Below, piece after piece: positions 10,258 through 26,949 of a DNA stretch of 26,949 nucleotides. Source of the stretch: an uncultured Spirochaetota bacterium (lineage in GTDB: Bacteria > Spirochaetota > B62-G9 > DRHN01). Below the pieces are notes generated by a model, which was given only the letters and a program-made list of their open reading frames with translations, had not been told where the DNA came from and searched no databases. The first letter of the stretch is position 1, and the number at the start of each line of letters is the position of its first letter. Both the position numbers and the translations under genes were made by a program. The stretch covers positions 1-26,949 of the forward strand of contig CAZPCG010000002.1 of NCBI GenBank assembly GCA_964584875.1, in the 5' to 3' direction.

Positions 10258-10530
10258 ATGGTTGAACGGGAAGTTGTTATCAAGAATAAAACGGGACTTC
10301 ATGCAAGACCTGCAGCGGTTTTGGTTCAGAAGGCGAATGAATTCCGTTCAGATATTTTTCTGGAGAAGGATGAGGATAGGGTGAATGCTAAGAGCATAAT
10401 GGGGGTGATGATGCTTGCGGCAGGGGAGGGCACACGTATAAAGATCATTGCAAGCGGGGAGGACGAAAAGGATGCTGTGGTAAAGATATCCCAACTTCTC
10501 GAATCGAACATTGACGGTGAGGTGAAGTGA
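10258..10530 (+). CDS. ptsH: Phosphocarrier protein HPr
   Basis: GLHARPA (His15-equivalent) and NAKSIMG (Ser46-equivalent). Confidence 0.96.
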   Translation: MVEREVVIKNKTGLHARPAAVLVQKANEFRSDIFLEKDEDRVNAKSIMGVMMLAAGEGTRIKIIASGEDEKDAVVKISQLLESNIDGEVK

Positions 10531-11012
10531 TGAAGAAGATCGTGGCCTTTTGCCTTGTGCTACTCCTCAGCCTGCTGCCATCGCTTGCGGTGATGGCGCA
10601 GAGTGAGCAGTATGTGAGGAAGGACCCAATACTTGCCGGAGCCCTCTCATGGTACGTTCCAGGGCTGGGGCAGTTTTATGCAGGCGCTTTTGTAAAAGGT
10701 GCCATCTTCTGGGTTGTTGAGGAGACACTCCTCGTAAGCACCATTTTAACGCTCGCTGAGCTGGAGTTGAATGTTACAGGCGATATTGGTCTGGGTCTGA
10801 ATATTAAGTCGAAGGAAAATCCCGCTAAAGGTGAGAGGAGAACCGCGCTTGTGCTTGGCACATCGTTGATTGTTCTTCATTTCATCAATGTTGTAGATGC
10901 GGTGAATACCACAAGGAACTACAACAAGAAACAGGGAAGGGGTCTGGTCACAGAGTTAAGATATGATGAAGAGAATAAAGTGTACAGCGTGGGAATCGAG
11001 GGTCGCTTTTGA
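10530..11012 (+). CDS. Exported membrane protein, DUF5683/Borrelia P13-like (paralog 1)
   Basis: Signal peptide, KDPILAGALSWYVPGLGQFY motif, two further hydrophobic segments, NVVDAV..YNKK, and an amphipathic C-terminus ending in F. Coupled to the ptsH stop codon. Family assignment is by eye. Confidence 0.6.
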   Translation: MKKIVAFCLVLLLSLLPSLAVMAQSEQYVRKDPILAGALSWYVPGLGQFYAGAFVKGAIFWVVEETLLVSTILTLAELELNVTGDIGLGLNIKSKENPAKGERRTALVLGTSLIVLHFINVVDAVNTTRNYNKKQGRGLVTELRYDEENKVYSVGIEGRF

Positions 11013-11076
11013 GTGCTGCGTAATGCAGCGAGGACGATTATTTTATGAATGCCGCAGGGCGGCAGGCAGGGCATGT

Positions 11077-11775
11077 ATGAAACGAGTAATCATGATTGTT
11101 CTCGGAGCATCTCTTCTCTTTTTTGGGATGTCCATCGGTTTGTGCAGTGAAGGGGATGGATTTCCCATTCAACAACTTTTTTTTGAGGGAAGCAGCCTCC
11201 ATCCTTTGGAGCCGATGTACGGTGGGTCCGGAATGAATAGCAGTACAGACGTTCAGAGCCTGATCGATTTGCCATGGCTTTCGGTCGAATCACTCCCAGG
11301 TATGACGGCCCTGGAGGAAGCTTTGAGTTTGGTGCAGGCTCCCTTTGCCAGGATGGCCGATTTCTCTCCTATAGAAAAAGACCCCTTCATTGCGGGGCTG
11401 CTCTCATGGTTCATGATGGGGATGGGGCAGATATACGCCCATGAATACACGAAGGGCTCAATCTTCATTGCTGCTGACCTTGCCAGCAAGGCATCTCTCA
11501 TCCTGCTCATCTCCCATATCAATACCAAGTATCATCCTAGTGGAAATGGGGTCATCAACATCGACTGGAAATCCTTTGACAACAACACGCGATTCCTCGT
11601 TGTTTCTTATTTCGCGGGCTCTTTCGGGTTGCGGGTTTATAATGTGATAGATGCGGTAAGATCGGCTCAGAGGTACAATGAGCGGTATTATTTACAGAAG
11701 AAGAGAAGCGGTATGTCTTTCTCAATTGAGCAGGAAAGTCTTTCTATTAACTGCAGCGTATTGTTTAAAAAGTAA
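11077..11775 (+). CDS. Exported membrane protein, DUF5683/P13-like (paralog 2)
   Basis: Signal-like N-terminus (MKRVIMIVLGASLLFFG), KDPFIAGLLSWFMMGMGQIY motif and NVIDAV..YNER. Start moved from 10963 to ATG11077. Confidence 0.6.
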   Translation: MKRVIMIVLGASLLFFGMSIGLCSEGDGFPIQQLFFEGSSLHPLEPMYGGSGMNSSTDVQSLIDLPWLSVESLPGMTALEEALSLVQAPFARMADFSPIEKDPFIAGLLSWFMMGMGQIYAHEYTKGSIFIAADLASKASLILLISHINTKYHPSGNGVINIDWKSFDNNTRFLVVSYFAGSFGLRVYNVIDAVRSAQRYNERYYLQKKRSGMSFSIEQESLSINCSVLFKK

Positions 11776-11824
11776 TTCGTTCCGCATGAGTTGATTTCAA
11801 GAGCACCGTCCGAGAGCACCATCT

Positions 11825-12391
11825 ATGAAAAAGGTACGGATATTCTTTTTTTTTACCGCCCTGTATGTGCTGGCAAGCACCTCATACCTCGTTGCAGAAG
11901 ATCTGACCATTCAGTTTTCAGGGCATACAGTTGACCGTGATACACTGCATGCCTACTTCTCTCTCAAAGGTGCAATATCCTACGATACCATCGATGCCAT
12001 TCGGAATGGAATCACTGCCAAGTTCTTCATAACTTTTCAACTTTCAAGATCAGGTGGGCTTCTAGGAATCGGGAGGAGTACGTACATCGAAAAGGTAGAG
12101 ACCTTCAACATATCCTATGATGTGTGGGAGAATCTTTTCATCATCGAGGACAGAAACAGGAAAGGCAGGCACCAGGCCCTGAGCTCATCGGATATCATCA
12201 ACAAGATCAACAGCATCATAAGTCCCCTGTCCTTGAGTCTCACCTCGACCAGGAATGCCGAGCCTCTGTACCTGAGGGCTAAGGTGAAGATGCAGACGAT
12301 AAAGCTCTTTCCACCCTTCGGAATATTTTTAATCTTTTTCGACCCCTGGAACTATGAGAGCAGATGGGTGTATACCGATATCGAACAGTAA
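11825..12391 (+). CDS. Exported protein, DUF4390-like
   Basis: Signal peptide, DAIRNGITAKFFITFQL and ISYDVWENLF patterns; lies immediately upstream of an NtrY-like kinase, the usual context for this family. Confidence 0.6.
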   Translation: MKKVRIFFFFTALYVLASTSYLVAEDLTIQFSGHTVDRDTLHAYFSLKGAISYDTIDAIRNGITAKFFITFQLSRSGGLLGIGRSTYIEKVETFNISYDVWENLFIIEDRNRKGRHQALSSSDIINKINSIISPLSLSLTSTRNAEPLYLRAKVKMQTIKLFPPFGIFLIFFDPWNYESRWVYTDIEQ

Positions 12392-12448
12392 GACCAGATG
12401 GGAGAGCTGTATCGGTTTGGTATGTCGAATTCCTGCTATGGATGAACC

Positions 12449-14179
12449 ATGAAACGCGGGAAACTGCTTAAAAATAAAAAGCTCGTTATTACTGTTCTTA
12501 TATCATTCTTCTCTTTCTACTTCGTTGCTGTAATCTATTTCAGTTTTGGCGTCGACCCGCTCATCGTCTTTCAATCGATCGTTGGGAACAGGCTGTTCCT
12601 CATTGCCCTTATCCTCTTATTCTCAATCATGCTCTTCCTTGTCCTGTACAACCTGTTCCAGGTTGTGATGGAGCGGATTAAGAACAGGGAAGGGTCGAAA
12701 TTCAGGTTACGTTTGACTGTGTTTTTTCTCGTGGTGACGCTGATACCGATAGTACCTTTGTCATTGATCTCCAACAACCTGATAGCAAAGAGCATAAACC
12801 TCTGGTTTATGAGTGGCATTGAGGGATCGCTCATGGACGCTATGGAGGTTTCAAAAGAGCTATACAACAGGTTGAGCTATGAGAGCAGGGATGAGTGGGA
12901 AGACGTCTGCGCTGATTGCAGCGAGGATGATATGGGATCCATCCCCTTCAAGGCAATCGACGGCATTCTTTCCTACACTGACGGTGGAGGGGAGGTGCGG
13001 GTGATTTTTCTCCGCGACATGCGGGTAATGGAAGCTTTTGATAAAACAATTAAGTTTCCCGAACTGGATGTCCATGGGTGGAAGAGAGTTTCCCTGGAGG
13101 AACAGGAGTTTCTCCTGATTCCGGTAAGACTCGATGATGACAGGAGCTATATTCTTGTGCGGAATGTCCCGGATAATATTAGAAGTTATACCAGCACAAT
13201 TTCGGCAGGTCTGCAGAATTACCGGACGTTGAAGATAATTCGTGAGCCTGTGAAGGGAATCATTATTCTTTTGTTCATCGTTCTTATCATGCCCTTCGTT
13301 CTTCTCTCCTTTTATCTGAGCCTCCTAATATCTCGGGAAGTTACCGATCCTATCAAAGCTCTTGCCATTGCCACTCAGAAAGTAGCAGATGATGAGCTTA
13401 CCTACACCATCGAGCTGGAGGCGAAGGATGAGCTGAAGTTGCTCATCGATTCGTTCAACAAGATGACCAGGGACCTCAGGGTGAACAAAGAACTTCTGAA
13501 GCATTCGGAGAGGAGTGCCGCCTGGCGGGATATCGCTCGAAAGATCGCCCACGAGATCAAAAATCCACTTACTCCTATCAGGCTCTCAGCAGAGCGAATG
13601 TTAAAGCTTTACAGCAAGAATGATCGATACAGGGAAGTTCTCACAAAAGGGATAGACACAATTTTCAAGGAAGTGGAAACCATCACAGATATGGTCAATG
13701 AGTTTTCAGATTTTGCAAGATTTCCTGACACAAAACTTTCCAGACATGATATTATTCCCATCATCAATGGCGTACTTGATTTTCTAAGGGATGCACATAA
13801 AGACATAGGGTTTACCTTCACCCATACCGAGGATAGTGTGTACCTTATGGTTGATGCGGCGCAGATCAGGAGAGCCCTGCTCAATATCATCTATAACAGC
13901 ATCAATGCCATCAGGGATAAGGGGTCGATTTCAATATCGTGCTATCCGGGGAAGGATACTGGAAACGGGAGTTACATAATAGCAATCAGCGACAATGGTA
14001 TCGGTATAGACCCCGACATAAGGGACAGCATATTCGATCCATATTTTTCGAAGGATGGAAGAGGGGCTGGACTGGGGCTTACCATTGTGGAAAAAATAGT
14101 GCTCGATAACAAGGGGAAGATATGGTTTGAGAGTGAACCCGGGATCACAACCTTTTATATGGAGTTTGCGAAGGCATGA
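12449..14179 (+). CDS. NtrY-like sensor histidine kinase (4 TM, HAMP, HisKA, HATPase; no PAS)
   Basis: HAMP (PIKALAIATQKVA...DELKLLIDSFNKM), H-box AWRDIARKIAHEIKNPLTPI, and N/G1/F/G2 boxes (NIIYNS, DNGIG, PYFS, GLGL). Confidence 0.9.
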   Translation: MKRGKLLKNKKLVITVLISFFSFYFVAVIYFSFGVDPLIVFQSIVGNRLFLIALILLFSIMLFLVLYNLFQVVMERIKNREGSKFRLRLTVFFLVVTLIPIVPLSLISNNLIAKSINLWFMSGIEGSLMDAMEVSKELYNRLSYESRDEWEDVCADCSEDDMGSIPFKAIDGILSYTDGGGEVRVIFLRDMRVMEAFDKTIKFPELDVHGWKRVSLEEQEFLLIPVRLDDDRSYILVRNVPDNIRSYTSTISAGLQNYRTLKIIREPVKGIIILLFIVLIMPFVLLSFYLSLLISREVTDPIKALAIATQKVADDELTYTIELEAKDELKLLIDSFNKMTRDLRVNKELLKHSERSAAWRDIARKIAHEIKNPLTPIRLSAERMLKLYSKNDRYREVLTKGIDTIFKEVETITDMVNEFSDFARFPDTKLSRHDIIPIINGVLDFLRDAHKDIGFTFTHTEDSVYLMVDAAQIRRALLNIIYNSINAIRDKGSISISCYPGKDTGNGSYIIAISDNGIGIDPDIRDSIFDPYFSKDGRGAGLGLTIVEKIVLDNKGKIWFESEPGITTFYMEFAKA

Positions 14180-15555
14180 AAACGGTAGTGGTCGTGGATG
14201 ATGAGCAGAGAATACGGGAAACCCTGAAGGATATTCTTGAGGACGAAGGCTATAAGGTTCTCGTTGCAGAAAATGGAAAAGAAGCCCTCGAAATTGTCAG
14301 CTTCAATACGGTCGATGTGGTTCTCCTCGACCTGTGGCTGCCTGAGATGGGCGGAATGGAGGTACTGAGGAAGATCAAGGAGGTTGAGGGTGACCTCCAG
14401 GTTATCATGATTTCTGGACACGGTACCATAGACTCGGCCGTTCAGGCGACCAAAAGTGGCGCTTTTGACTTCCTGGAAAAACCCCTGTCGATCGGGAGGG
14501 TGCTCAAAGTCGTAGACCATGCAATCAAGATCAGCGGGCTTCGGAAGGAAAACATCGCCCTGCGGCAGAGGAATCAGAATATTTACTACATGGTCAGGGG
14601 CACATCCAGGGCTTTCGAGGAAATCGAGGGCATCATCAACAATTGCGCTGCAAGCAATTCACGCGTCTTAATCAGTGGTGAAAACGGAACAGGAAAGGAA
14701 GTCGTGGCGAGAACTATCCATCTCAAAAGCCCGCGGCGGGATGGACCCTTTGTCGCTGTGAATTGTGCGGCGATTCCACAGACCCTGATAGAATCTGAGC
14801 TGTTCGGATATCAGAGGGGGGCCTTCACGGGAGCGGTGAGCGATAAAAAGGGAAAGTTCGAGATTGCAAGCGGCGGGACGATTTTCCTCGATGAGGTTGC
14901 CGACATGAGCCTTGCCGCACAGGCAAAGGTGCTGCGTGTGCTTGAAGAGATGCAGATCGAGAGAATTGGGGGGGTGGCACCTATCAGGATCGATGTTCGG
15001 GTCATAGCGGCAACGAATAAAGACATAACGAGGGAAATCAGGGAGAGAAGGTTCAGGGATGATCTGTATTATAGATTGAACGTTGTTCCCATGCACGTAC
15101 CACCCCTTCGTGAGAGGCGGGAAGATATACCCCAGCTCATCGAGTACTATCTTGCATATTTTGCCAATGAGAGCAACAGGAAGAGAAAGACGATGAGCGA
15201 GGAGGCACGATCATACCTCACCGAAATGTATTCCTGGCCGGGTAATATCAGGGAATTGAAAAATCTGATCGAAAGGATTACGATTCTCACGAAAGGTGAT
15301 ACGATAATGCTGCGTGATGTTGAGCAAAACCTCCCAAGACTCACCGAAGAGGAGGCAGCATCCGCTCTATTGACAGAGCTCCAGTACAATCTAGAGCTGA
15401 AGAAGGCCAAAAAGCTGTTCGAACGGAAGTACATTACGAATGTGTTGAGGGAGAATGAGTATAATATCACCAAGGCGGCTAACGTTCTCAAGGTTGAAAG
15501 ATCAAACCTGTACAAACTCATGAAGCGGTTGAACATAGCATATGCAAAAGAGTAA
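14176..15555 (+). CDS. NtrX/NtrC-like sigma54-dependent response regulator
   Basis: REC domain (VVDDE, LLDLWLP, FLEKP), AAA+ domain (GENGTGKE, ELFGYQRGAFTGA, FLDEV, WPGNIREL) and a Fis-type HTH; ATGA overlap with the kinase. Confidence 0.93.
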   Translation: MKTVVVVDDEQRIRETLKDILEDEGYKVLVAENGKEALEIVSFNTVDVVLLDLWLPEMGGMEVLRKIKEVEGDLQVIMISGHGTIDSAVQATKSGAFDFLEKPLSIGRVLKVVDHAIKISGLRKENIALRQRNQNIYYMVRGTSRAFEEIEGIINNCAASNSRVLISGENGTGKEVVARTIHLKSPRRDGPFVAVNCAAIPQTLIESELFGYQRGAFTGAVSDKKGKFEIASGGTIFLDEVADMSLAAQAKVLRVLEEMQIERIGGVAPIRIDVRVIAATNKDITREIRERRFRDDLYYRLNVVPMHVPPLRERREDIPQLIEYYLAYFANESNRKRKTMSEEARSYLTEMYSWPGNIRELKNLIERITILTKGDTIMLRDVEQNLPRLTEEEAASALLTELQYNLELKKAKKLFERKYITNVLRENEYNITKAANVLKVERSNLYKLMKRLNIAYAKE

Positions 15556-16573
15556 ACCCACAACAACGATTCCACCGGCAAAGCTCCTGCAGGAGCTTAA
15601 AAAGGGCATGGTGCACCCGGTGTACCTCCTTCTCGGAGAAGAGAGAGGAGGGAAGGAGGAGTTCATCCGCCACCTTCAGCGCAGGCTCTCCTGTGATTCG
15701 ACTGACAGGCGGTCGATGAATACAACGGTGTATCACGGCGATGACGCCATTCCGGAGGAAATCGTTGAAAATCTCAACACCTATTCCTTCTTTTCAGGCA
15801 GGAAGCTTGCTGTAGTGCATGATTTCGACAGGATGAAGAGCAGCAGAGCCGTGCCCGAGTACCTCGGCTCACCGAATGTTGGGGCTGTCCTTGTTCTGCT
15901 GTCCGATAAGAAATCAGTTTCGAAGCAGGTGATGGAGCTGGTCGAACAGCATGGAAGGGTGAGCATCTTCTGGCCTATGTTTCGCCACGAGGGTGAACGG
16001 TGGGTCGCAGAGAAGTTGCAGGAGCTTGGAATAACCGCTGACCGTGAAACTGTCCGGTACATCGTTGAGCTTTCAGGAACTGGCATGGAGGACCTGAACA
16101 ATCAGATACTGAGTATCAGGGATTACCTCGGCGAGGGGGAAAAGCTCACCCTTGAAAAAGCACGGTCAATTGTATCCTCGATCTACAATCACACGGTGTT
16201 TGACCTTGTGCAGTCCCTTTTTCAGAAACCACCGGGGGAGATGATCTCGATCTATCGCAAGCTCATCGATAATGGTGAGTTCCCTTCCAGGATACTCTTT
16301 TCCTGCATCAGGGAGATTCTGAAAATCTTCTCCGTGTATGCACTGAAAAAGGGAGGGTATGATTTCCCGTGGATTGTAAAAAAGCTCGGTCTTAGAAAGA
16401 TGGAGGCTGAACGGATACAGAAGATCGTTGGCAGGGTAAACCTGAGGACCTTCCGGGCGCTGTTTGCAGCGGTGACAAAACTGGATTATACGATGAAATC
16501 CAGCCCCGCCGAGCTGGGAGAGGTTGAGTTTGAAAGGTTCCTGGCGGAGCTTTTGTCGTACGGGGGAAATTGA
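15542..16573 (+). CDS. holA: DNA polymerase III delta subunit
   Basis: PVYLLLGEE, YSFFSGRKLAVV, NHTVFDLV and C-terminal LDYTMKS..EVEFERFL patterns; length 343 aa. Confidence 0.8.
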   Translation: MQKSKPTTTIPPAKLLQELKKGMVHPVYLLLGEERGGKEEFIRHLQRRLSCDSTDRRSMNTTVYHGDDAIPEEIVENLNTYSFFSGRKLAVVHDFDRMKSSRAVPEYLGSPNVGAVLVLLSDKKSVSKQVMELVEQHGRVSIFWPMFRHEGERWVAEKLQELGITADRETVRYIVELSGTGMEDLNNQILSIRDYLGEGEKLTLEKARSIVSSIYNHTVFDLVQSLFQKPPGEMISIYRKLIDNGEFPSRILFSCIREILKIFSVYALKKGGYDFPWIVKKLGLRKMEAERIQKIVGRVNLRTFRALFAAVTKLDYTMKSSPAELGEVEFERFLAELLSYGGN

Positions 16574-16574
16574 A

Positions 16575-17582
16575 ATGCCCGATGTTGTGAGCATAGGCGA
16601 GGCGTTGATCGACTTTCTCTCTGTGGAGAAAGGGGTGCTGCTTGAAAATACTTCGGGTTTTACGATCGCTCCTGGAGGAGCCCCTGCAAATGTTGCCGCC
16701 GCAGTTGCCAGGCTCGGGGGCAGTTCGGGGTTCATAGGCAAGGTGGGTAGCTATTCCTTCGGGAGGTTGTTCAGGAATACCCTTGCAAAAGCGGGTGTGG
16801 ATATCGAACTGCTCAGGGTGGGAAAAACGGTCAATACAACGCTGGCATTCATAGCGGTAAAGCCTGATGGAGAACCAGATTTCACCTTCTACCGGAAGCA
16901 CGGAGGGGCTGACATATCCCTCAGACAGGATGAGCTCGATAAGGGATACATACTTGACTCGAAAATATTCCACTTCGGGTCCTTGAGCTTCACCGACGAA
17001 CCGTTGAGAAGCACAACGTTGAGTGCCCTTGAGATCGCAAGAGGGGCGGGAAAGATCATTTCCTTCGACCCCAACCTCAGGCCGTCGCTGTGGGAAAACC
17101 TCGGGCAGGCAAAGGCAGAGATGGAGAGGGGCCTCCAGTACGCCGACATTGTGAAGATCACCGTTGAAGAGCTCGAATTTCTTACCGGGGTAAAACATCT
17201 TTCGGGATTCGATCGGAGATTCGATCTCATCTTCAAGCATGGACCAAGGATGGTTTTAGTGACGAGAGGTGAGAGCTCCTGCTCCTTCAGCAATGGGACG
17301 ATCGCAATTGAGGTTCCCGCCTTCCGGGTGGACCTCGTCGATGCAACCGGTGCAGGCGACGCCTTTGTTGGAGGGGTGTTGTGCAAGATGCTCCAGAGAA
17401 TAAGGGAGGGTCAGGCTGCCTTCGACCTTGCGAAAGACGAGGCAGAGGATATGCTTCGCTTTGCCCACGCCTGCGGGGCCATCACGGTTACAAGGAAGGG
17501 TGTGATTCCAGCCCTTCCCACCCTCCAGGAGGTGAACGGCTTCCTGGAAAACATCCCTAAGGCACCCTTTTCAGACCAATAG
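16575..17582 (+). CDS. PfkB-family carbohydrate kinase (fructokinase-like)
   Basis: IGEALIDF, PGGAPANVA, ISFDPNLRPSLW and VDATGAGDAFVGG. Start set at ATG16575. Confidence 0.9.
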   Translation: MPDVVSIGEALIDFLSVEKGVLLENTSGFTIAPGGAPANVAAAVARLGGSSGFIGKVGSYSFGRLFRNTLAKAGVDIELLRVGKTVNTTLAFIAVKPDGEPDFTFYRKHGGADISLRQDELDKGYILDSKIFHFGSLSFTDEPLRSTTLSALEIARGAGKIISFDPNLRPSLWENLGQAKAEMERGLQYADIVKITVEELEFLTGVKHLSGFDRRFDLIFKHGPRMVLVTRGESSCSFSNGTIAIEVPAFRVDLVDATGAGDAFVGGVLCKMLQRIREGQAAFDLAKDEAEDMLRFAHACGAITVTRKGVIPALPTLQEVNGFLENIPKAPFSDQ

Positions 17583-17600
17583 AGATTATACAGGCGACCC

Positions 17601-18593
17601 CTATTTTTTCAGCCAGGCCATCATAGCCCTCAGCTCTTTTCCGACCCTTTCAATGAGATGTTCTTCGCCCATTTTCTTCAGCTTGTTGTACACAGGCCTG
17701 TTAGCCTGATTTTCCAGGATCCATTCCCTCGCAAACTCTCCGCTCTGAACTCCCCTGAGCATCTTCTTCATTTCAGCCCGCACGTGATCATCGATGATCC
17801 GCGGCCCCCTCGTGTAGTCACCGTACTCGGCGGTGTTGCTGATAGAGTAGCGCATGAGCGACATGCCGCCCTCGTTCATGAGGTCGACTATGAGCTTCAT
17901 CTCATGCATGCACTCGAAATAGGCTATTTCAGGCTGGTAGCCGGCTTCAACGAGTGTCTCGAAGCCCGCCTGGATCAGGGCGGTGATCCCCCCGCACAGA
18001 ACGGCCTGCTCCCCGAAAAGGTCGGTTTCTGTTTCTTCCTTGAAGGACGTCTCAATTACACCGGCCCTCGTAGCACCGATGCCCTTCGCATAAGCGAGGG
18101 CGTGCTCCTTCGCTCTCCCCGATTTATTCTGGTGGACGGCAATCAGGCTCGGCACACCCTTCCCCTCTACGTACATCCTCCTAACAAGGTGCCCGGGGCC
18201 CTTTGGAGCTATCATGATAACATCGATCTCAGAGGGTGGCACGATCTGATCGTAGTGGATGTTGAAGCCGTGGGAGAAAACGAGGGTGTTACCGGCTTTC
18301 AGGTTTTTCTCTATGGATTCCCTGTAGATTCGTGACTGCAGCTCATCAGGCAGGAGAATATGGATGAAGTCAGCTCTCTCTGCCGCTTCAGTGGCACTCA
18401 GAGGGTCGAATCCGTGATCCTTTGCAAGCTTCCAGTTATCGGTGCCCTTCAGTTCAGAAACGATGATGTTTAGACCGCTGTCCCTGAGATTCTGCGCCTG
18501 TGCGTGACCCTGGCTTCCATAACCGATTATTGCCAGGGTCTTTCCCTTCAGCAGAGACAGGTCTGCATCGCTGTCGTAGTACATCTTTGCCAT
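17601..18593 (-). CDS. ilvC: Ketol-acid reductoisomerase, class I (330 aa)
   Basis: [43 protein letters not shown] and [22 protein letters not shown] lies 7 nt before the ATG at 18593 (the ORF-track start 18746 is too far upstream). Confidence 0.98.
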
Positions 18594-18717
18594 AGCTCCA
18601 TCCTCCGGATAAATTTTATAATCAAGTGAATTTGTCAATCTTCCCCAGTAAATATTATGTTGTGCCGAAAAATCGAAGAAAATGTGCCGTATACAGGGAT
18701 GAAAATACGGTAGTGCC

Positions 18718-18746
18718 AAGGTAACATGAAACATCCCCTGTGTCAA
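18718..18746 (-). promoter_or_regulatory. Candidate sigma70-type promoter for ilvC
   Basis: On the minus strand: TTGACA (18746-18741), 17-bp spacer, TACCTT (18723-18718). Confidence 0.4.
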
Positions 18747-18923: not shown

Positions 18924-19244
18924 ATGAAGGATATAGTTACTGAAATACTTGAAACAGAAAAAAGGGTCGAAGAGCTTCTTCGCAGAGCCCGTGAGGAAAC
19001 CAGCAGCATAAAGCAGAATACCGAAAGGGATGCAAACCGGAGAATAGCCGATGCCAGAAGCCAGGCCCAGTCGATCATCAGGGATGCCGTGGCAAAGGCG
19101 GTAAAGGAAGCGGAGGAAACCCGTAAAAGAGCACTGCATCAGGCCGAGCAGGAAAGCAGGGTGAAGATTGACCGGGTGAAAGGATCCGTGGACGAGGTCG
19201 TTGAGCAGATCGTCGCGATGATACGGGGAGGGGTGTTCGAGTAA
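18924..19244 (+). CDS. V/A-type ATPase peripheral stalk subunit H/G
   Basis: 106-aa charged coiled coil (ILETEKRVEELLRRAREE); first gene of the operon. Confidence 0.75.
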   Translation: MKDIVTEILETEKRVEELLRRAREETSSIKQNTERDANRRIADARSQAQSIIRDAVAKAVKEAEETRKRALHQAEQESRVKIDRVKGSVDEVVEQIVAMIRGGVFE

Positions 19245-19250
19245 GGAAGG

Positions 19251-20324
19251 ATGCTGATGGCATCACAGGTTCAACGGTATGCTTTCATAAATGCGAAGCT
19301 CCGGGCGCGTATCTCAAAGCTCCTGGGCGAAAATCTCCTCGAGCGTTTTATAGATGCCCCGACATTTCACGACGCTCTGGCACTCCTCAGAGGCACTTCC
19401 TACAGCATGATTGGGGAAATCTACACCAAAACGGGGGACGTAAAAGCAGGGGAGTTGGGGCTTTTCAGGCAGGAAGTCGAGCTCTACCGCGAAATCGAGA
19501 AGTATGTAGAGCATGAAGTTCGTGATGTTGTGAGGGCGCTTGCTGCATCCTATGAGATTGAGAATCTGAAAACTGCGCTCCGTCACTTTTTTCGCCAGAG
19601 GATCAGGGAAGAGGGCAGTGGGAAAGAGCCTGAGTACCTCTTCTTAGAGAAGATCCTCCATGAATTTGATCCGATCAGAATCGCCGATGCTCCGGGTTTC
19701 ACCCGGATAATCGAGGAGCTCCGGGATACCCCCTACGGTCAGCTCGTCGAGGAGAACAGGGATGCGGTTGAGAGGGAACGCTCCCTCTTTCCACTTGAGA
19801 TTGCACTCGACCATTACTATTACAGGGAGCTCATCGCTTCTGCTGAGCGTTTGAACAAAACCGACCGCCGTGAAGCCCTCAGGCTCATCGGGGTTGAAAT
19901 TGACCTTCAAAATATAAACTGGATTATCCGCTTTAAAAGCTTTTACAACCTGCCTCTTGAAAAGGTTGTGGCACTAACCATTCCTTCGGGCTTCCGGGGC
20001 ACTGAGAAATCGGTAATGGAAGCGTATGCCTCCCAGAGCGTGGCCGGTATACTTGAGGGGGTCATAAAGAAAAAGTATCCAGGAGTTGCAACTCTCCTTG
20101 CAACACCCACCGCTGATACCCATTCCCGCCTCCTCCTGATAGAGCGCATCCTGGAGCAGATTCTTGTACATGAAGTGGGACGGATACTTGCAGGGTATCC
20201 CTTTACGATTGGCATCATCCTTTCCTATTTTATCTTAAAGAAGAATGAGGTGAGGATGATCAGGACCGTTTTGCTTGCAAAGCAGTACCGACTTCCGAAA
20301 GAGAGGATCAGGGGTCTTGTCTGA
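19251..20324 (+). CDS. atpC: V/A-type ATPase subunit C (d/AC39)
   Basis: YAFINAKLRARISKLL, LEIALDHYY and GVEIDLQNINWIIR patterns; 357 aa; operon context. Confidence 0.88.
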   Translation: MLMASQVQRYAFINAKLRARISKLLGENLLERFIDAPTFHDALALLRGTSYSMIGEIYTKTGDVKAGELGLFRQEVELYREIEKYVEHEVRDVVRALAASYEIENLKTALRHFFRQRIREEGSGKEPEYLFLEKILHEFDPIRIADAPGFTRIIEELRDTPYGQLVEENRDAVERERSLFPLEIALDHYYYRELIASAERLNKTDRREALRLIGVEIDLQNINWIIRFKSFYNLPLEKVVALTIPSGFRGTEKSVMEAYASQSVAGILEGVIKKKYPGVATLLATPTADTHSRLLLIERILEQILVHEVGRILAGYPFTIGIILSYFILKKNEVRMIRTVLLAKQYRLPKERIRGLV

Positions 20325-22402
20325 TGTTTACGACGCCGATGGTACAACTGCTCGCTGTCGTGCTTGATCGTGATGCTGACAGTGTCACCGAGGTGCTTCT
20401 GCGGGAGGGTGTCATGCATTTCATGAACGTGTCCGACGTGAAGGAGCGGTGGTCGGATAAGCTGCATGCAATAAATCCAAAGGTCTCACTGAACAGGATT
20501 GTGGAGACCAGGAAGCGTGTTGAAGGGCTGCTTGGGCAGGCAAACGGCCAGGAAGGTGTGGAGCCTGAAATTGTTGAAACCCGGTATCCCCAGCGTCCAC
20601 CATCAGCAGCGGAGCTCGATATCGGGGAAAGGGAGCCTTTGAACCTCGACGAGGAGACAAAAAGACTCGACAGCATAGTGAATGAGATCGAGCAGTTGAG
20701 AGAGAAACAGCGCAGAATCCAGCAGGAAATTGCAAGTTATTCTGAGATAAAATCGCAACTGGAGAAGTACGGCTCACGCCTCAGGGAGCGCGGCATAGGA
20801 GGACAGTACTCCTTCATCGCGATTCGCCTGGGACGCCTGCCGCACGACAGCATCGAGCTTTTTTCAAGCGAGCTCAGCACAACGCCCTCGGTTGCCATAC
20901 CGCTGCACACCGAGGAGGGATTTGATCATTTTCTGCTCGTGACAATGAAGCGGGATTCCGCTCATATCGAGGGCATACTTGAGAAGTCAGGCTGGGAAGA
21001 TGTTGAGGTCTCAAAGGATGTCGGTGACCTGCGGGCAGGTATCAGTGGCAATCTTGATGGAAAGATAGCACGTCTCAGAGAGGAGCACTCCAGGCTTGAG
21101 AATGAGAAGAGGGAGGTTGTCGAGAGGAACAGGAGCGGTTTGATCAAGCTGTGGAAGCAGCTCAGGATAAACGAGCTTTTCTATAAGATACAGACCTATT
21201 TCAGGAGAACCTCACGTACAGTTCTCTTTTCGGGGTGGCTGCCATCGGAGAAGCTTCCCCCGCTTGTAAGAGACATCGAATCCGCCACCCAGGGTCGTTG
21301 CTTCATTGAATGGAACGACCCGAAAGCGCTGTTGCGGCGGAAACTGGACCAGCTCAAACCCCCGGTTCAGCTTCGCAATCCTAAGTTTTTGACACCCTTT
21401 CAAATGCTCGTCACAAACTACGGGGTACCGGAGTACGGAACAATCGATCCAACCCCCTTCGTCATGGTTGCCTATCTCATCATGTTCGGGCTCATGTTTG
21501 CGGATGTTGGCCAGGGGTTGATACTCATGCTTCTAGGGATTATCGGAACCATGCTCATCAGGGCACAGAAGGAGGGGTTGAAAAACCTTTCGAAGTTGAT
21601 AATCTGGTGTGGCATGGCTTCGGTAGTCACCGGAGTGCTGTTTGGCTCCTATTTCGGTATGGAGTGGACGAAGCCTCTGTGGTTTGATTTCCACGGTATC
21701 GTTTTAGGGAGTCCCCATAAGCGATCCTTTGTGAATGATATTTTCGACATTCTTACCATAACGGTCATCTTTGGCATTGCCGTTATAGGGGTTGGCCTCC
21801 TGTTCAACTGGATCAACCTTTTCAGAAAGGGTAAGTGGGTAGAGCTCATTCTGGATAGAGGCGGGCTGATCGGTGGGTGGCTATTTGCCGGAGGCATCTA
21901 TACGGCATGGTATCTTGTCCGGCATGGATATCGAAGCCTTCCGCAGGCTTCGCCACTCTTCTACGCCGTGGGCCTGCCTGCTGTTATGATATTCGTAAAG
22001 CATCCCCTGCTCTTTGCCCTCGAGCGAGAGAGGGGTAGCGGGGAACCTTTCACCATGTTCACTCCTCTTCACTTCATAATGGAAGGGGTGGTCGAGCTCC
22101 TTGAGGTATTCAGCGGATATCTCTCGAATACCCTGTCGTTCATGCGAGTTGCGGGTCTGGGGATAGCCCATGTTAGCCTGATGACCGCCTTCTTTGAGCT
22201 TGCCAGGATGGCAGCCCGTGGAGGTGGATACAGCGTCTGGTCAGTTCTCATCCTGATCTGCGGGAATGTGCTCGTCATCGGGCTTGAGGGATTGTCTGCA
22301 GGGGTTCAGTCCCTCCGACTGAACTACTATGAGTTCTTTACGAAGTTTTTCAGCGGAACCGGTAGGCTCTATTCACCCGTTTCGCTGCGAAGCCGTGGTT
22401 GA
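20324..22402 (+). CDS. atpI: V/A-type ATPase subunit I (a)
   Basis: Soluble N-terminal half, SGWLP, YGVPEYGTIDPTP, FGLMFADVGQG, essential Arg in NTLSFMRV, and LRLNYYEFFTKF. Confidence 0.95.
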   Translation: MFTTPMVQLLAVVLDRDADSVTEVLLREGVMHFMNVSDVKERWSDKLHAINPKVSLNRIVETRKRVEGLLGQANGQEGVEPEIVETRYPQRPPSAAELDIGEREPLNLDEETKRLDSIVNEIEQLREKQRRIQQEIASYSEIKSQLEKYGSRLRERGIGGQYSFIAIRLGRLPHDSIELFSSELSTTPSVAIPLHTEEGFDHFLLVTMKRDSAHIEGILEKSGWEDVEVSKDVGDLRAGISGNLDGKIARLREEHSRLENEKREVVERNRSGLIKLWKQLRINELFYKIQTYFRRTSRTVLFSGWLPSEKLPPLVRDIESATQGRCFIEWNDPKALLRRKLDQLKPPVQLRNPKFLTPFQMLVTNYGVPEYGTIDPTPFVMVAYLIMFGLMFADVGQGLILMLLGIIGTMLIRAQKEGLKNLSKLIIWCGMASVVTGVLFGSYFGMEWTKPLWFDFHGIVLGSPHKRSFVNDIFDILTITVIFGIAVIGVGLLFNWINLFRKGKWVELILDRGGLIGGWLFAGGIYTAWYLVRHGYRSLPQASPLFYAVGLPAVMIFVKHPLLFALERERGSGEPFTMFTPLHFIMEGVVELLEVFSGYLSNTLSFMRVAGLGIAHVSLMTAFFELARMAARGGGYSVWSVLILICGNVLVIGLEGLSAGVQSLRLNYYEFFTKFFSGTGRLYSPVSLRSRG

Positions 22403-22419
22403 AGCAGGATGGCGGCAGC

Positions 22420-22452
22420 AATATCCGAGTGATATCCGGGTAATATCCGGTG
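22420..22452 (+). repeat. 3 x 11-bp direct repeat upstream of the subunit K RBS
   Basis: aATATCCGagt / gATATCCGggt / aATATCCGgtg, with the ATATCCG core at 22421, 22432 and 22443. Confidence 0.85.
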
Positions 22453-22464
22453 GAGGAAATCAAC

Positions 22465-22872
22465 ATGAATGGTAGTGACCCGAGAGTTGAGAGAAGAAAA
22501 CAGCTGAGGAATCGCATTCTTGTAAGCGTTGCAGTACTTTTTTCTGTTCTTGCCATTGCCGGTATGATCGCTGGTGTAAGACTCTTTGCTCAGGAGGGAG
22601 GGCCGGGCGTCGAGGGAGCAGTGGCGGTTCAACCCTCTGTTTCTGGTGAGCGGGCAGAGGTTTCAAAGTTTGCCTTCATTGCTGCCGCAGTGGCCTTCGG
22701 GCTCGGGGCGCTCGGTGCCGGCCTTGCGATCGGCAATGTTGGGGCTGCAGCCATGGGGGCTGTCGCTGAGAAGCCAGAGATAGCCGGGCAGGCCCTGATA
22801 TTCGTCGCACTGGCAGAGGGGCTTGTCATATTCGGCTTCATCACTGCACTGATGATCCTGGGTAAGGTGTGA
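22465..22872 (+). CDS. atpK: V/A-type ATPase proteolipid subunit K/c (single hairpin with N-terminal extension)
   Basis: Gly/Ala-rich hairpin, AVAEKPE loop and conserved Glu in VALAEGL. GGAGGA RBS lies 7 nt before ATG22465. Confidence 0.93.
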   Translation: MNGSDPRVERRKQLRNRILVSVAVLFSVLAIAGMIAGVRLFAQEGGPGVEGAVAVQPSVSGERAEVSKFAFIAAAVAFGLGALGAGLAIGNVGAAAMGAVAEKPEIAGQALIFVALAEGLVIFGFITALMILGKV

Positions 22873-22892
22873 TGTGATGGTGGAGTGAAAAC

Positions 22893-23198
22893 GTGAAGTA
22901 CTTCGTCATAGGCGATGAAAATACCGTTTTAGGATTTTCCATTGCCGGTGTTGGGGGCCAGGTTGTACAGAGCAAAGAGCAGGCCCAAAGGGCTTTTGAG
23001 GAGGCGCTGAAGGACGAATCTATTGGCATCATCATCGTAACAGAGCGAACGGCGGATCTCATCAGGTCGATTGTCAACCGGTATACCTTCGTGGAGCGTT
23101 TTCCCCTCCTGGTCGAAATACCGGACAGGGAAGGCCCGAAGGCAGACCGTCCCGGCATACGCGACATGGTGACTGCGGCAATTGGAATCAAGCTGTGA
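22893..23198 (+). CDS. atpF: V/A-type ATPase subunit F
   Basis: VIGDENTVLGFSIAGV, IGIIIVTE and PLLVEIPD. Confidence 0.93.
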   Translation: MKYFVIGDENTVLGFSIAGVGGQVVQSKEQAQRAFEEALKDESIGIIIVTERTADLIRSIVNRYTFVERFPLLVEIPDREGPKADRPGIRDMVTAAIGIKL

Positions 23199-23213
23199 GG
23201 AAGCGAGGTCGTG

Positions 23214-23885
23214 ATGACAGAACGGGGAGCCAGCTCTGACCCTGGATCGGAAAAGAAGGAAGGGGAGGGAAAGGGAGCGCTGATAACGGGTATTGAGCAG
23301 GAAGCATCAGGTGAGGCTGAGCGGATCATCGCTGATGCGAAAAAGCAGGCAGAGGAGCGGATAGCAGGCGCCCAGCGCCAGGCTCAATCGATTCTGGAAG
23401 AAGCAGGCCGGCGGGCAGAAGAGCAGTCGCGCAATGCCAGAGCAAAGATACTTGCGGGCTTGAAGATAGAGATAAAACGAAGATCGATGCGTGTGAGGGA
23501 ATCGGTTTTACAGGAGGCAATAGGGCGGGCAAAGAGTGAGGTTCGCGCGATGGCGTCCAGGCCCGGGTACAGGGAGGTGCTGCAGAACTGGATTGTTGAG
23601 GCCGCCGTCGGTCTTGGGGCAGGGTCGGCAGTGGTAAATGGATCGGCTTTGGAACGTCCACTCATCGATGACGCGATGCTTCGGTCCGCCTGCCGGAGGG
23701 TGAGGGAGCTTACAGGAAGAGAAGTGCGGCTTGAGCTTTCAGGAGACCCACCGATGACAAGGCAGGGCGTGGTTCTCACGGCATCCGATGGAAAAACGGC
23801 TTTCAACAACCAGGTCGAAACGAGGTTTGTGCGCTACCATCCCCGGATTCGCAGTCTTATCTACGAGAAACTCTTCGGGGAATAG
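23214..23885 (+). CDS. atpE: V/A-type ATPase subunit E
   Basis: N-terminal coiled coil followed by GVVLTASDGKTAFNNQVETR; operon position. GTG23211 is an alternative start. Confidence 0.85.
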   Translation: MTERGASSDPGSEKKEGEGKGALITGIEQEASGEAERIIADAKKQAEERIAGAQRQAQSILEEAGRRAEEQSRNARAKILAGLKIEIKRRSMRVRESVLQEAIGRAKSEVRAMASRPGYREVLQNWIVEAAVGLGAGSAVVNGSALERPLIDDAMLRSACRRVRELTGREVRLELSGDPPMTRQGVVLTASDGKTAFNNQVETRFVRYHPRIRSLIYEKLFGE

Positions 23886-23919
23886 TCGCATGGCCAGACT
23901 TAAGCGTGGAGAGTGGTGC

Positions 23920-25686
23920 ATGGAGAGGGTTGTCGGACAGGTGTACCGGGTGAACGGCCCGGTTATAGAGGCGATGGGCGTCAAAGAGGCCATGATGTTC
24001 GAGCTCGTGAGGGTTGGGGAGCAGCATCTTGTGGGGGAGATCATCAAGCTTGAGAGGGAGAGAGCAATCATTCAGGTTTATGAGGATACTACAGGCATTG
24101 CCCCTCTCGATCCGGTATACGGGTCGGGAATGCCGCTCTCCGTGGAGCTTGGGCCGGGGCTGATCGGCACCATCTATGACGGCATTCAGAGGCCCCTTGA
24201 GGATATAAGAAATCTTTCGGGCGAATACATAGAGCGGGGGGTTCAGCTTCCCTCCCTCAACAGGAACGTAAGGTGGGAGTTTCACCCGCTCCTTTCCCCT
24301 GACGATCAGGTGTCAGGGGGGACTGTCATCGGCACGGTGCAGGAAACCGAACGCGTTGAGCAGAGGATAATGGTGCCGCCTGGACTGGAGGGTGTTATTG
24401 AGTTCATCGTTCCTGAGGGTGAGTACGCCGTTGATGAGCCTGTTGCCAGGATGCGAACCGAGGACGGGGTGAGTGAGCTTTTCCTCCTGCACCGCTGGCC
24501 CATACGAAGGCCGAGGCCGGTGCGCAGGAGGCTCCCCCCTGACCTTCCGTTGATTACAGGCCAGAGGGTGATCGACACCCTGTTCCCCGTGGCAAAGGGG
24601 GGGACGGTTGCCGTGCCGGGCGGGTTTGGGACAGGCAAGACCATGACCCAGCAGGCCCTTGCGAAGTGGTGCGATGCGGACATCATCGTCTACATCGGCT
24701 GCGGTGAGCGTGGGAACGAGATGACCGATGTACTGACGGAGTTTCCAGAGCTGACCGATCCTCGCACGGGCAGAACGCTCATGGAGCGGACGGTTCTCAT
24801 CGCCAATACCTCGAACATGCCGGTATCGGCACGGGAGGCAAGCATTTACACGGGCGTGACAATAGCCGAGTACTTCCGCGATCAGGGGTATCATGTCGCC
24901 GTCATGGCAGATTCAACCTCTCGCTGGGCCGAGGCGCTCAGGGAACTGGGGGGAAGGATGGAGGAAATGCCGGCGGAGGAGGGTTTCCCCGCCTATCTCC
25001 CGACTCGCGTGGCTGAGTTCTACGAGCGGGCAGGACACGTGGAGACCCTGTCCGGGGGAATAGGCTCGGTCACCATAGTGGGCGCCGTATCTCCGCCAGG
25101 AGGGGATTTTTCCGAGCCCGTCACCCAGCATACGAAGAGATTTGTTCGATGTTTCTGGTCCCTCGATAAGGGCCTTGCAAATGCGCGGCACTATCCCTCC
25201 ATCTCCTGGCTTGAAAGCTACAGTGAGTACCTGAACGATATCGGTGCCTGGTGGGAGCGGCATATTAGCGGCGAGTGGGTGAAGGACCGCAGGGATATTA
25301 TGGACCTTCTGCTCAGGGAGGTGAAGCTCCAGCAGGTTGTGAAGCTGGTCGGGCCTGACGCCCTGCCCGACAGTCAGCGCTTCATCCTCGGTGTGTGCAC
25401 CCTGTTCAAGAATGGCTTTCTCCAGCAGAATGCCTTTGATGAGATCGACCGCTACTCGACCCTTGAGAAGCAGGTGAAGATGCTGAGTATAATACTGACC
25501 TACTACAGGAGGGGGGCGGAGGCGATAAAGCGGGGTGTAACGCTCGTGAAGCTTCGCCGCATGAAGGTGTACCAGGATATCGTCAAGATGAAGTTTACCG
25601 TGCCCAACGATGATCTTTCAGAGCTTGACAGAATAGAGGCAAGGCTTGAGCGTTCCATGGAACAGCTTGAGGCGATCTATGCCTGA
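23920..25686 (+). CDS. atpA: V/A-type ATPase catalytic subunit A
   Basis: VNGPVI, PLITGQRVIDTLFP, P-loop GGFGTGKT, GCGERGNE, ADSTSRWAEALRE and PAEEGFPAYL. GGAGAG RBS favours ATG23920. Confidence 0.98.
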   Translation: MERVVGQVYRVNGPVIEAMGVKEAMMFELVRVGEQHLVGEIIKLERERAIIQVYEDTTGIAPLDPVYGSGMPLSVELGPGLIGTIYDGIQRPLEDIRNLSGEYIERGVQLPSLNRNVRWEFHPLLSPDDQVSGGTVIGTVQETERVEQRIMVPPGLEGVIEFIVPEGEYAVDEPVARMRTEDGVSELFLLHRWPIRRPRPVRRRLPPDLPLITGQRVIDTLFPVAKGGTVAVPGGFGTGKTMTQQALAKWCDADIIVYIGCGERGNEMTDVLTEFPELTDPRTGRTLMERTVLIANTSNMPVSAREASIYTGVTIAEYFRDQGYHVAVMADSTSRWAEALRELGGRMEEMPAEEGFPAYLPTRVAEFYERAGHVETLSGGIGSVTIVGAVSPPGGDFSEPVTQHTKRFVRCFWSLDKGLANARHYPSISWLESYSEYLNDIGAWWERHISGEWVKDRRDIMDLLLREVKLQQVVKLVGPDALPDSQRFILGVCTLFKNGFLQQNAFDEIDRYSTLEKQVKMLSIILTYYRRGAEAIKRGVTLVKLRRMKVYQDIVKMKFTVPNDDLSELDRIEARLERSMEQLEAIYA

Positions 25687-25747
25687 AGTGACGGGGCCGA
25701 CCCTAGCCGTCCGAGCTGAATGCGATTTTATATCGAGTAAAGATTAA

Positions 25748-25836
25748 GCGAACTTCGAGTTTTCATTATAAACAAAATGGACCAATACATTATCATGAAT
25801 TTATAATAGGGCAGGTACATAAAATTCGAAGTTCGC
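25748..25836. repeat. 89-bp AT-rich element bounded by 16-bp inverted repeats (MITE-like or RNA hairpin)
   Basis: GCGAACTTCGAGTTTT (25748-25763) and AAAATTCGAAGTTCGC (25821-25836) match at 15/16, and the mismatch can form a G-U pair. No target-site duplication seen. Confidence 0.7.
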
Positions 25837-25886
25837 AGGCACTGCCAGGTCTATGATTACCTTTTTTTTTACAGGAGTAACTGAGG

Positions 25887-26949
25887 ATGACCGATGTTTC
25901 GGGGGAACGAAATTCCCTGTCACAAAATCCACCTGGTGAATCTCATGGGCATCTTTCGAAGAGTTTACATGAGATAGAAAGGGAACTCATAAAGGGCAGG
26001 GAATACATCGGCGTTGAAAAGATCGATGGTCCCCTCCTCTTTGTGAGGAACACACATCCGGTCGGGTACCGCGAGCTCATCGAGTGTATGGATGCTGAGG
26101 GTAATACAAGGCTCGGTATAGTGCTTGAAACCTCCCGTGATATGGTCGTTGCCCAGATCTTCGAGGGCACAACGGGTCTCACCATACCGAAGACCAGGGT
26201 GCGGTTTACAGGCGGCCCGCTTGAGGTTTTTGTCTCGCGTGATATGCTCGGGCGCATCTTCAACGGGCTCGGCCATCCGATCGACGGCGGCCCTCCGCCC
26301 CGGGGAGAGGTTCTGCTAAACGTCAACGGAAGGCCGATTAACCCCACGGCGAGGGAGTATCCCAGGGACTTCATCCAGACGGGAATCTCTGCGATTGACG
26401 GGATGAACACCCTTATCCGCGGTCAGAAGCTGCCCATCTTCTCGGGGAACGGCCTCCCACACAACGAGCTTGCGGCCCAGATTGCCCGTCAGGCCAAGAT
26501 TCGCGGGGAGGAGGCTCAGTTCGCCTGCGTGTTTGCGGCGATGGGCGTCAAGCACGACGTGGCGCAGTTCTTCATCCGCTCCTTCGAGGACTCCGGCGTT
26601 CTTGAAAACGTAGCCCTGTTTCTCTCGCTGGCGGATGATCCATCCATAGAGCGGCTTATCACACCGCGCACTGCGCTCACCCTTGCCGAGTACCTCGCTT
26701 TCCATGAAGAGATGCACGTGCTCGTCGTCATGACTGACATGACTAACTACTGCGAGTCCCTGAGGGAGATCTCAACGATACGCGGTGAGATACCCTCCAG
26801 GAAGGGGTACCCTGGCTATCTCTATTCCGACCTTGCCGAGGTTTATGAGCGCTCCGGGATGCTTAAGGGGTGCAGGGGTTCAATAACGCTGCTCCCCATC
26901 CTGTCCATGCCAAACGATGATATCTCCCACCCTGTGCCTGACCTGACCG
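25887..26949 (+). CDS. atpB: V/A-type ATPase subunit B (partial; runs off the window end, absent from the ORF track)
   Basis: Translated by hand from ATG25887 (AGGAG RBS at 25873-25877): [70 protein letters not shown] and [14 protein letters not shown]. Confidence 0.96.

Follow-up and report, generated by a model that had tools for sequence, protein, structure and literature searches.

The ketol-acid reductoisomerase (KARI) encoded by the ilvC gene in the window, i.e. the whole 26,949-nucleotide stretch of DNA from an uncultured Spirochaetota bacterium that was analysed, probably has a clear preference for NADH over NADPH. NADH-type KARI activity is classified separately as EC 1.1.1.382, and the query KARI would be an enzyme of this kind. 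We infer this preference, and the atomic contacts proposed for it, from the cofactor-specificity loop, which belongs to the type found in the NADH-preferring KARI from Thermacetogenium phaeum (Tp-KARI), an enzyme to which the query is homologous over nearly its full length.

A reverse-strand open reading frame (ORF, 17601..18746) encloses ilvC, the likely ATG of which is at 18593..18591, the gene itself (17601..18593, - strand) coding for 330 residues plus a stop codon. A ribosome-binding site (GGAGGA, 18601..18606, - strand), as read from the sequence, lies 7 nt ahead of the start codon at 18593; otherwise only weak promoter-like matches were found upstream of ilvC. A + strand ORF (17658..18335) overlapping ilvC is a shadow of it. 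The identification of the product as IlvC in the original prediction is borne out by the ORF and its translation, by Pfam matches to KARI_N (residues 15-178, 3e-75) and KARI_C (residues 184-327, 2.5e-67), and by matches to the NCBIfam ilvC equivalogs NF004017 (557.5 bits, cut-off 336), NF009940 (496.6 bits, cut-off 406) and TIGR00465 (462.6 bits, cut-off 226). The domain plan is that of an N-terminal Rossmann domain followed by a single knotted C-terminal domain, and the best PDB matches are class I KARIs, with E values down to 1e-147.

The overall conservation of functional residues is consistent with this assignment. In an alignment of 31 sequences including the query KARI (A1), the Mg2+-ligand residues of the knotted C-terminal domain (D191/E195/E227/E231, in the region 17901..18023, - strand) are invariant, and published descriptions of Sac-KARI and MtKARI assign their metal ligands to the same residue numbers. 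Also invariant are H108, K131, S250 and S252, which we take to be catalytic residues. The glycine motif for Rossmann dinucleotide binding, G24-Y-G-S-Q-G29 in translation (18507..18524, - strand), has G24, G26 and G29 invariant in A1 and, in an AlphaFold model of the query KARI built from that alignment, is placed between β1 (residues 19-23) and a helix (residues 27-38). On the combined evidence of the Pfam, NCBIfam equivalog and PDB matches, the invariant metal ligands and the invariant H108, K131, S250 and S252, the ilvC product is an intact class I KARI; it is predicted to turn 2-acetolactate and 2-aceto-2-hydroxybutyrate into the corresponding dihydroxy acids with the help of a nicotinamide cofactor and a pair of Mg2+ ions.

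The stretch S46-W54, on which the original prediction focused, reads SELKGTDNW at 18432..18458 on the - strand, the codon table reproducing both residues and coordinates exactly: S46 (18458-18456), E47 (GAA, 18455-18453), L48 (CTG, 18452-18450), K49 (AAG, 18449-18447), G50 (18446-18444), T51 (18443-18441), D52 (18440-18438), N53 (18437-18435) and W54 (18434-18432). In a published structure-guided alignment, strand β2, ending 'V-x-V-G', leads into the loop and then into helix αB, which starts 'W-x-x-A'; on this scheme the query has β2 as N42-IIVS46, the loop as E47-LKGTD-N53, and then W54-KLA. These boundaries, together with an ungapped alignment to the DIPSSEN loop of Tp-KARI and the AlphaFold model, define the β2-αB specificity loop as the seven residues E47-L48-K49-G50-T51-D52-N53 (18435..18455, - strand). 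In the model, the N-terminal domain has pLDDT values >90, with β2 formed by residues 42-46, coil by residues 47-51 and a helix starting at residue 52, so that E47 is the first residue after β2; T51 is immediately before the helix and is probably a helix cap. The knotted C-terminal domain, which has pLDDT values of about 50-60 in the monomer model, was not used, such values being expected since this domain intertwines in the dimer.

In the canonical NADPH loop, L-R-x-G-S-x-S, the 2'-phosphate is contacted by the Arg and the two Ser residues (positions 2, 5 and 7), i.e. R162/S165/S167 in the spinach enzyme and R58/S61/S63 in the Slackia (Se) enzyme (PMC5940873). By contrast, there is no Arg within residues 45-55 of the query; the replacement of Arg by Leu and the gain of acidic residues described in the original prediction are both evident, in that L48 occupies the position of the 2'-phosphate-binding Arg, E47 directly follows β2, and D52 is at position 6. 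In Rossmann folds, an acid directly after β2 is at the classic NAD(H)-selecting position. Canonical NADPH class I KARIs, including those from Slackia exigua (4KQW, LREGSSS) and A. acidocaldarius (4TSK, LRPGSS) and B. anthracis IlvC2 (8EP7), have the same fold, length and catalytic residues as the query, which with the loop masked is 63-64% identical to the A. acidocaldarius and B. anthracis structures; within the loop, however, neither the position-2 Arg nor the terminal Ser is present in the query, and Glu and Asp have been gained at positions 1 and 6, respectively. The equivalent of A. acidocaldarius R84, a residue mutated in an engineered NADH variant, is L85 in the query; this position does not track loop class and was dropped from consideration.

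The sequence of Tp-KARI was obtained via the cluster members of a Thermacetogeniaceae homologue. It is that of T. phaeum DSM 12270 IlvC (AFV12179.1, UniProt K4LVZ1; P0242 in our set), for which the source name is 'Ketol-acid reductoisomerase (NAD(+))', and its loop region reads VVVADIPSSENWKKA, in agreement with the ADIPSSENW-type loop given in the original prediction. A kcat/KM ratio for NADH/NADPH of 74 is tabulated for Tp-KARI (Brinkmann-Chen, Cahn & Arnold 2014), with its loop given as DIPSSEN, in PMC5940873; the data of the Arnold laboratory are used here as cited in that paper and in PMC5817062. Pairwise alignment of the query with Tp-KARI gives 70% identity and 83% similarity, with 0 gaps over 328 residues, the Tp-KARI segment VADIPSSENWK aligning without gaps to the loop region of the query. 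Position by position, the loop residues (query/Tp-KARI) are E/D, L/I, K/P, G/S, T/S, D/E and N/N, so that ELKGTDN differs only conservatively from DIPSSEN. The two enzymes, both of ~330 residues, share acidic residues at positions 1 and 6, an aliphatic residue at position 2, a hydroxyl-bearing one at position 5, and a final Asn (position 7) that precedes Trp. They differ at position 3, which is Lys in the query and Pro in Tp-KARI, at position 4, which is Gly in the query and Ser in Tp-KARI, and in their hosts, i.e. a Spirochaetota metagenome-assembled genome (MAG) and a thermophilic Firmicute, respectively. When a back-translated ADIPSSENW pattern was searched for in GTDB genomes, the sole match was in a Nostoc sp. 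contig (L081, 6721..6747) and is taken to be due to chance; no Thermacetogenium contig was matched, the genome being either absent from the collection or masked in this stretch.

The criterion of Brinkmann-Chen and colleagues (2014), as quoted in PMC5940873, is that one or more acidic residues occupy conserved positions of the loop that bind phosphate. The query has two such acids, E47 after β2 and D52 at position 6, where Tp-KARI has Asp and Glu, respectively. The original prediction of an NADH-type enzyme is therefore supported by comparison: the ELKGTDN and DIPSSEN loops are of equal length and align without gaps in proteins that are 70% identical, the position-2 Arg is lost in favor of L48, and an acid directly follows β2. 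[quoted passage not shown] A phosphate might nonetheless receive hydrogen bonds from T51 and N53. A literature search found no kinetics for the query KARI or for any protein with an EL[EK]GTDN loop.

Other natural exceptions to the canonical NADPH loop are listed in the kinetics table of PMC5940873; these include Af-KARI (loop LPEWDKAT, NADH/NADPH ratio 13), Ua-KARI (loop ETEILGGNKNPS, NADH/NADPH ratio 152) and Do-KARI (loop QLEGDAY), which uses NADH and for which the table gives no NADPH values. The loop of the NADH-preferring Ua-KARI likewise opens with Glu in the published structure-guided alignment. Do-KARI, from Desulfococcus oleovorans, which was compared by its loop alone, resembles the query in having no loop Arg and in having Leu at position 2. 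Its L-E-G at positions 2-4 also occurs in ELEGTDN, the commonest loop of the clade to which the query belongs, the query itself having Lys at position 3; by contrast, Do-KARI has Gln where the query has Glu at position 1, and positions 5-7 also differ. The second-best solved structure, PDB 8k32, is 69% identical to the query outside the loop and has a 12-residue loop, LRKPEDDFTTAE, that is similar to the one in the bispecific Syntrophomonas wolfei KARI, LRKPFDEASEKE (compare L043, from Syntrophomonadaceae). The occurrence of this longer loop on a near-alike backbone indicates that very similar KARI backbones can carry 6-, 7- or 12-residue loops.

The loop type is strongly conserved. Amongst the best 120 database homologues of the query, which are 72-92% identical to it and whose named members are Spirochaetota, Poribacteria or Armatimonadota MAGs, all but one (P0087) have the pattern [SA]-[ED]-[LIV]-x-G-[TS]-x-N-[WYF]. 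A KARI with exactly EL[EK]GTDNW is present in 10 GTDB species genomes, mostly labelled Spirochaetota, these enzymes being 80-86% identical to the query. Given the occurrence of the motif in 119 of the 120 best homologues and in these 10 genomes, the letters of the query loop are, on comparative grounds, not a sequencing accident. Amongst GTDB relatives of 60-70% identity in the matches listed, the same loop type is also found in more distant KARIs of other groups, and it occurs in most of 120 homologues of the Syntrophaceticus KARI, these coming from Thermodesulfobacteriota, Planctomycetota, Omnitrophota, KSB1, Aerophobetes, Leptospirales and Thermacetogeniaceae. In a collection of 314 KARIs, which was assembled on the basis of similarity to two acid-loop queries such that its proportions are not those of a census, an acid is present at loop position 1 in 237, an Arg at position 2 in 54, and both in only 1. 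The comparisons show the acid-type loop to be common, rather than rare, in the sampled lineages, which comprise several phyla of mostly uncultured bacteria; in this regard, the original prediction, according to which such loops are rare, did not hold.

Within the 237 acid-type loops, position 3 is Pro in 104, Glu in 102, Lys in 20 and Gln in 7, and the closest relatives of the query split between Lys and Glu at this position. By contrast, 234 of the 237 have Ser or Thr at position 5. Since position 5 is also Ser in Tp-KARI itself, T51 is, in terms of the alignments, uninformative on cofactor choice. Thus, of the two residues that the original prediction suggested might, on alignment, prove to substitute for the lost phosphate contacts, T51 can be set aside, whereas K49 does align with an established contact, R49 of Ia-KARI, albeit at a variable position.

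K49 is the main caveat to the NADH reading as judged from sequence comparisons, because its counterpart in alignments with the Ia/Sac-type enzymes is R49, which binds phosphate. In Ia-KARI (loop LERQGDS) and Sac-KARI (loop LEREGNS), which are bispecific or NADPH-preferring, it is the third loop residue (R49), not the second, that binds the 2'-phosphate and stacks on the adenine (PMC5940873). The archaeal KARIs with LERxGxS-type loops, i.e. those from Ignisphaera aggregans (4XDZ), Metallosphaera sedula and Sulfolobus acidocaldarius (5YEQ), resemble the query in having a 7-residue, acid-containing loop and a basic residue numbered 49, and the query is 56% identical to Ia-KARI with the loop masked. 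It could thus be that the query is a bispecific, EC 1.1.1.383-like KARI using NADH and NADPH about equally, with K49 partly replacing the lost Arg, and T51 and N53 hydrogen bonding to the 2'-phosphate, so offsetting repulsion by E47 and D52. In keeping with such a possibility, several natural acid-containing loops, namely LERQGDS, LEREGKS and LDDKSPH, are bispecific rather than NADH-specific according to PMC5940873, which also lists LRKPFDEASEKE as a bispecific loop, and the query, along with a minority of relatives, has Lys where Glu predominates. However, Ia-type loops have a hydrophobic residue at position 1 and an acid at position 2, whereas in the query, as in Tp-KARI, the two are the other way round (Ua-KARI also has an acid at position 1). 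The archaeal loops run from Leu to Ser and that of the query from Glu to Asn, such that E-L-K-G-T-D-N does not fit the L-E-R-x-G-x-S pattern of the EC 1.1.1.383 type, the basic residue at position 3 being the only feature shared. Further, the phosphate contacts in canonical 7-residue loops are made from positions 2, 5 and 7, not from position 3, even when the latter is Lys, as in the spinach loop LRKGSNS (PMC5940873). The free interchange of Lys with Glu and Pro at position 3 among close relatives argues against a conserved functional contact for K49, and overall we consider a bispecific enzyme unlikely.

Considerably less probable is that the query is a conventional NADPH-preferring KARI despite the letters of its loop. 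There is precedent for error in reading cofactor preference from the loop, since Sac-KARI was predicted on this basis to be bispecific but has an actual preference for NADPH of about 20-fold (PMC5940873), and the KARI of M. tuberculosis, which has Lys instead of Arg, is NADPH-dependent. In the query, however, the loop has no Arg and two flanking acids, and the closest characterised enzyme, Tp-KARI, with the same loop type, favors NADH 74-fold according to the tabulated values. Engineered switches from NADPH to NADH have used the kinds of change that distinguish the query, i.e. replacement of the Arg by a non-basic amino acid and, towards the loop end, of Ser by Asp. A clear preference for NADH therefore remains the favored reading.

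The original description of ilvC as an orphan is correct for the region analysed, in that none of the other ilv genes (ilvB/N, ilvD, ilvE) is present among the ORFs scanned, which cover most of the 27 kb window, and the solitary site is conserved in relatives. Scattered ilv genes are, however, common in bacteria, which argues against explaining the isolation of the gene by a different role for its product. That the product is a KARI-fold paralogue with such a role (ketopantoate-reductase-like or BurG-like) is most improbable, for although the syntenic loci of relatives also lack ilvBN, ilvD and ilvE, and recruitment of KARI-fold enzymes to other chemistry is exemplified by BurG (PMC9359912) and by the PDB 7pcc family, the query matches three ilvC equivalogs over its full length and far above their cut-offs, shares 60-70% identity with bona fide KARIs as against a match to BurG-like chains at E 1e-44 only, and has all the metal-binding and catalytic residues invariant.

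The gene order in the window is rny, ymdB, a tlyA-like methyltransferase gene, pyrG, lptC, lptA, lptB, rpoN, hprK, genes for a histidine kinase and an NtrC-type regulator, holA, a pfkB kinase gene, ilvC (on the opposite strand) and a V/A-type ATPase operon. The convergent neighbour of ilvC encodes a pfkB-family sugar kinase (16524..17582, + strand; Pfam PfkB, 3.7e-61), and the same neighbour is found in relatives. The divergent neighbour, the V/A-type ATPase operon, starts 330 bp from ilvC and spans 18924..26949 (+ strand) of the window, with the Pfam matches vATP-synt_AC39, V_ATPase_I and ATP-synt_ab assigned to the section 18924..25686; its ORFs include one of 106 residues without a Pfam match and those for subunits C/AC39 (19251..20324), I (20324..22402) and A (23788..25686). 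The full operon is annotated in two syntenic loci, L082 and L084, where subunits c, F, E, A, B and D and a Usp gene complete the order. The arrangement in which ilvC diverges from the V-ATPase operon and converges on pfkB-holA is kept in both of these, the KARIs of which are 91% and 84% identical to the query, respectively. The GC content of ilvC (0.537) is close to that of the window (0.51) and of a neighbouring gene (0.54). Horizontal transfer as the cause of the solitary site was therefore rejected, and the matching GC content and conserved synteny indicate that the solitary position of ilvC was inherited within the lineage rather than created by recent insertion.

Some further features of the region were noted. 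In L084, a gene for a 571-residue protein with mannitol dehydrogenase domains and a C_GCAxxG_C_C match (11218..12933) lies between ilvC and pfkB; it is absent from the window. The ORFs of holA, encoding the DNA polymerase III delta subunit (15542..16573), and pfkB, both on the + strand, overlap by 50 bases; the true start of pfkB is probably further downstream, since the ORF opens with TTG and the product in relatives has 325-329 residues. Two + strand ORFs between hprK and a DUF4390 gene (10527..11012 and 10963..11775) have no Pfam match. Pfam-less ORFs of like size occur at the same place in L082 and L084 (160/228 and 155/196 residues), from which the two ORFs are probably real conserved genes. 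No Rfam elements were found across the whole window.

The one exception amongst the 120 best homologues bears on how cofactor loops may evolve in this family. P0087, which is 79% identical to the query, has AQREGSRNW, in which loop position 2 is once more Arg and position 6 is Arg as well, although the Spirochaetota clade around it is otherwise uniformly of the acid-loop type. Among the 314 collected KARIs, in a loop-masked neighbor-joining tree, i.e. a distance tree without support values, acid-type loops ([DE][LIV]xG[ST]xN) and Arg-containing loops (QR/NR-xGxxN) interleave; in the same tree, which is not robust, the Thermacetogeniaceae group is not adjacent to that of the query. This interleaving, together with P0087, suggests repeated natural switching between the two loop states. 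A change from E-L to Q-R would require just two single-base changes, GAR to CAR and CTN to CGN (compare 18450..18455 in the window). If the loop states do correspond to use of NADH versus NADPH, it may tentatively be proposed, although we regard it as doubtful, that natural switching of KARI cofactor preference is frequent and cheap in anaerobes, with the Lys49 sub-variant of the query perhaps being an intermediate, bispecific form.

The use of NADH by KARIs lifts an NADPH bottleneck in the anaerobic production of isobutanol, valine and leucine, and natural NADH-using enzymes have been sought, and engineered ones made, for this purpose; the NADH-utilising enzymes found in nature and characterised by 2018 originated in thermophilic, acidophilic or halophilic organisms (PMC5940873). 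By its sequence, the query is probably a further member of the NADH-type class I KARIs as described by Brinkmann-Chen, Cahn and Arnold (2014), and, being a Spirochaetota enzyme 70% identical to Tp-KARI, the best of these, would be a reasonable extra candidate. Because the rule by which such enzymes are recognised has already been published and applied, the practical and conceptual gain from a single gene is small. It may be, however, that the loop class, rather than any single gene, is the object of interest, and that NADH-type KARIs are far less rare in uncultured lineages than the 2014 description implies.
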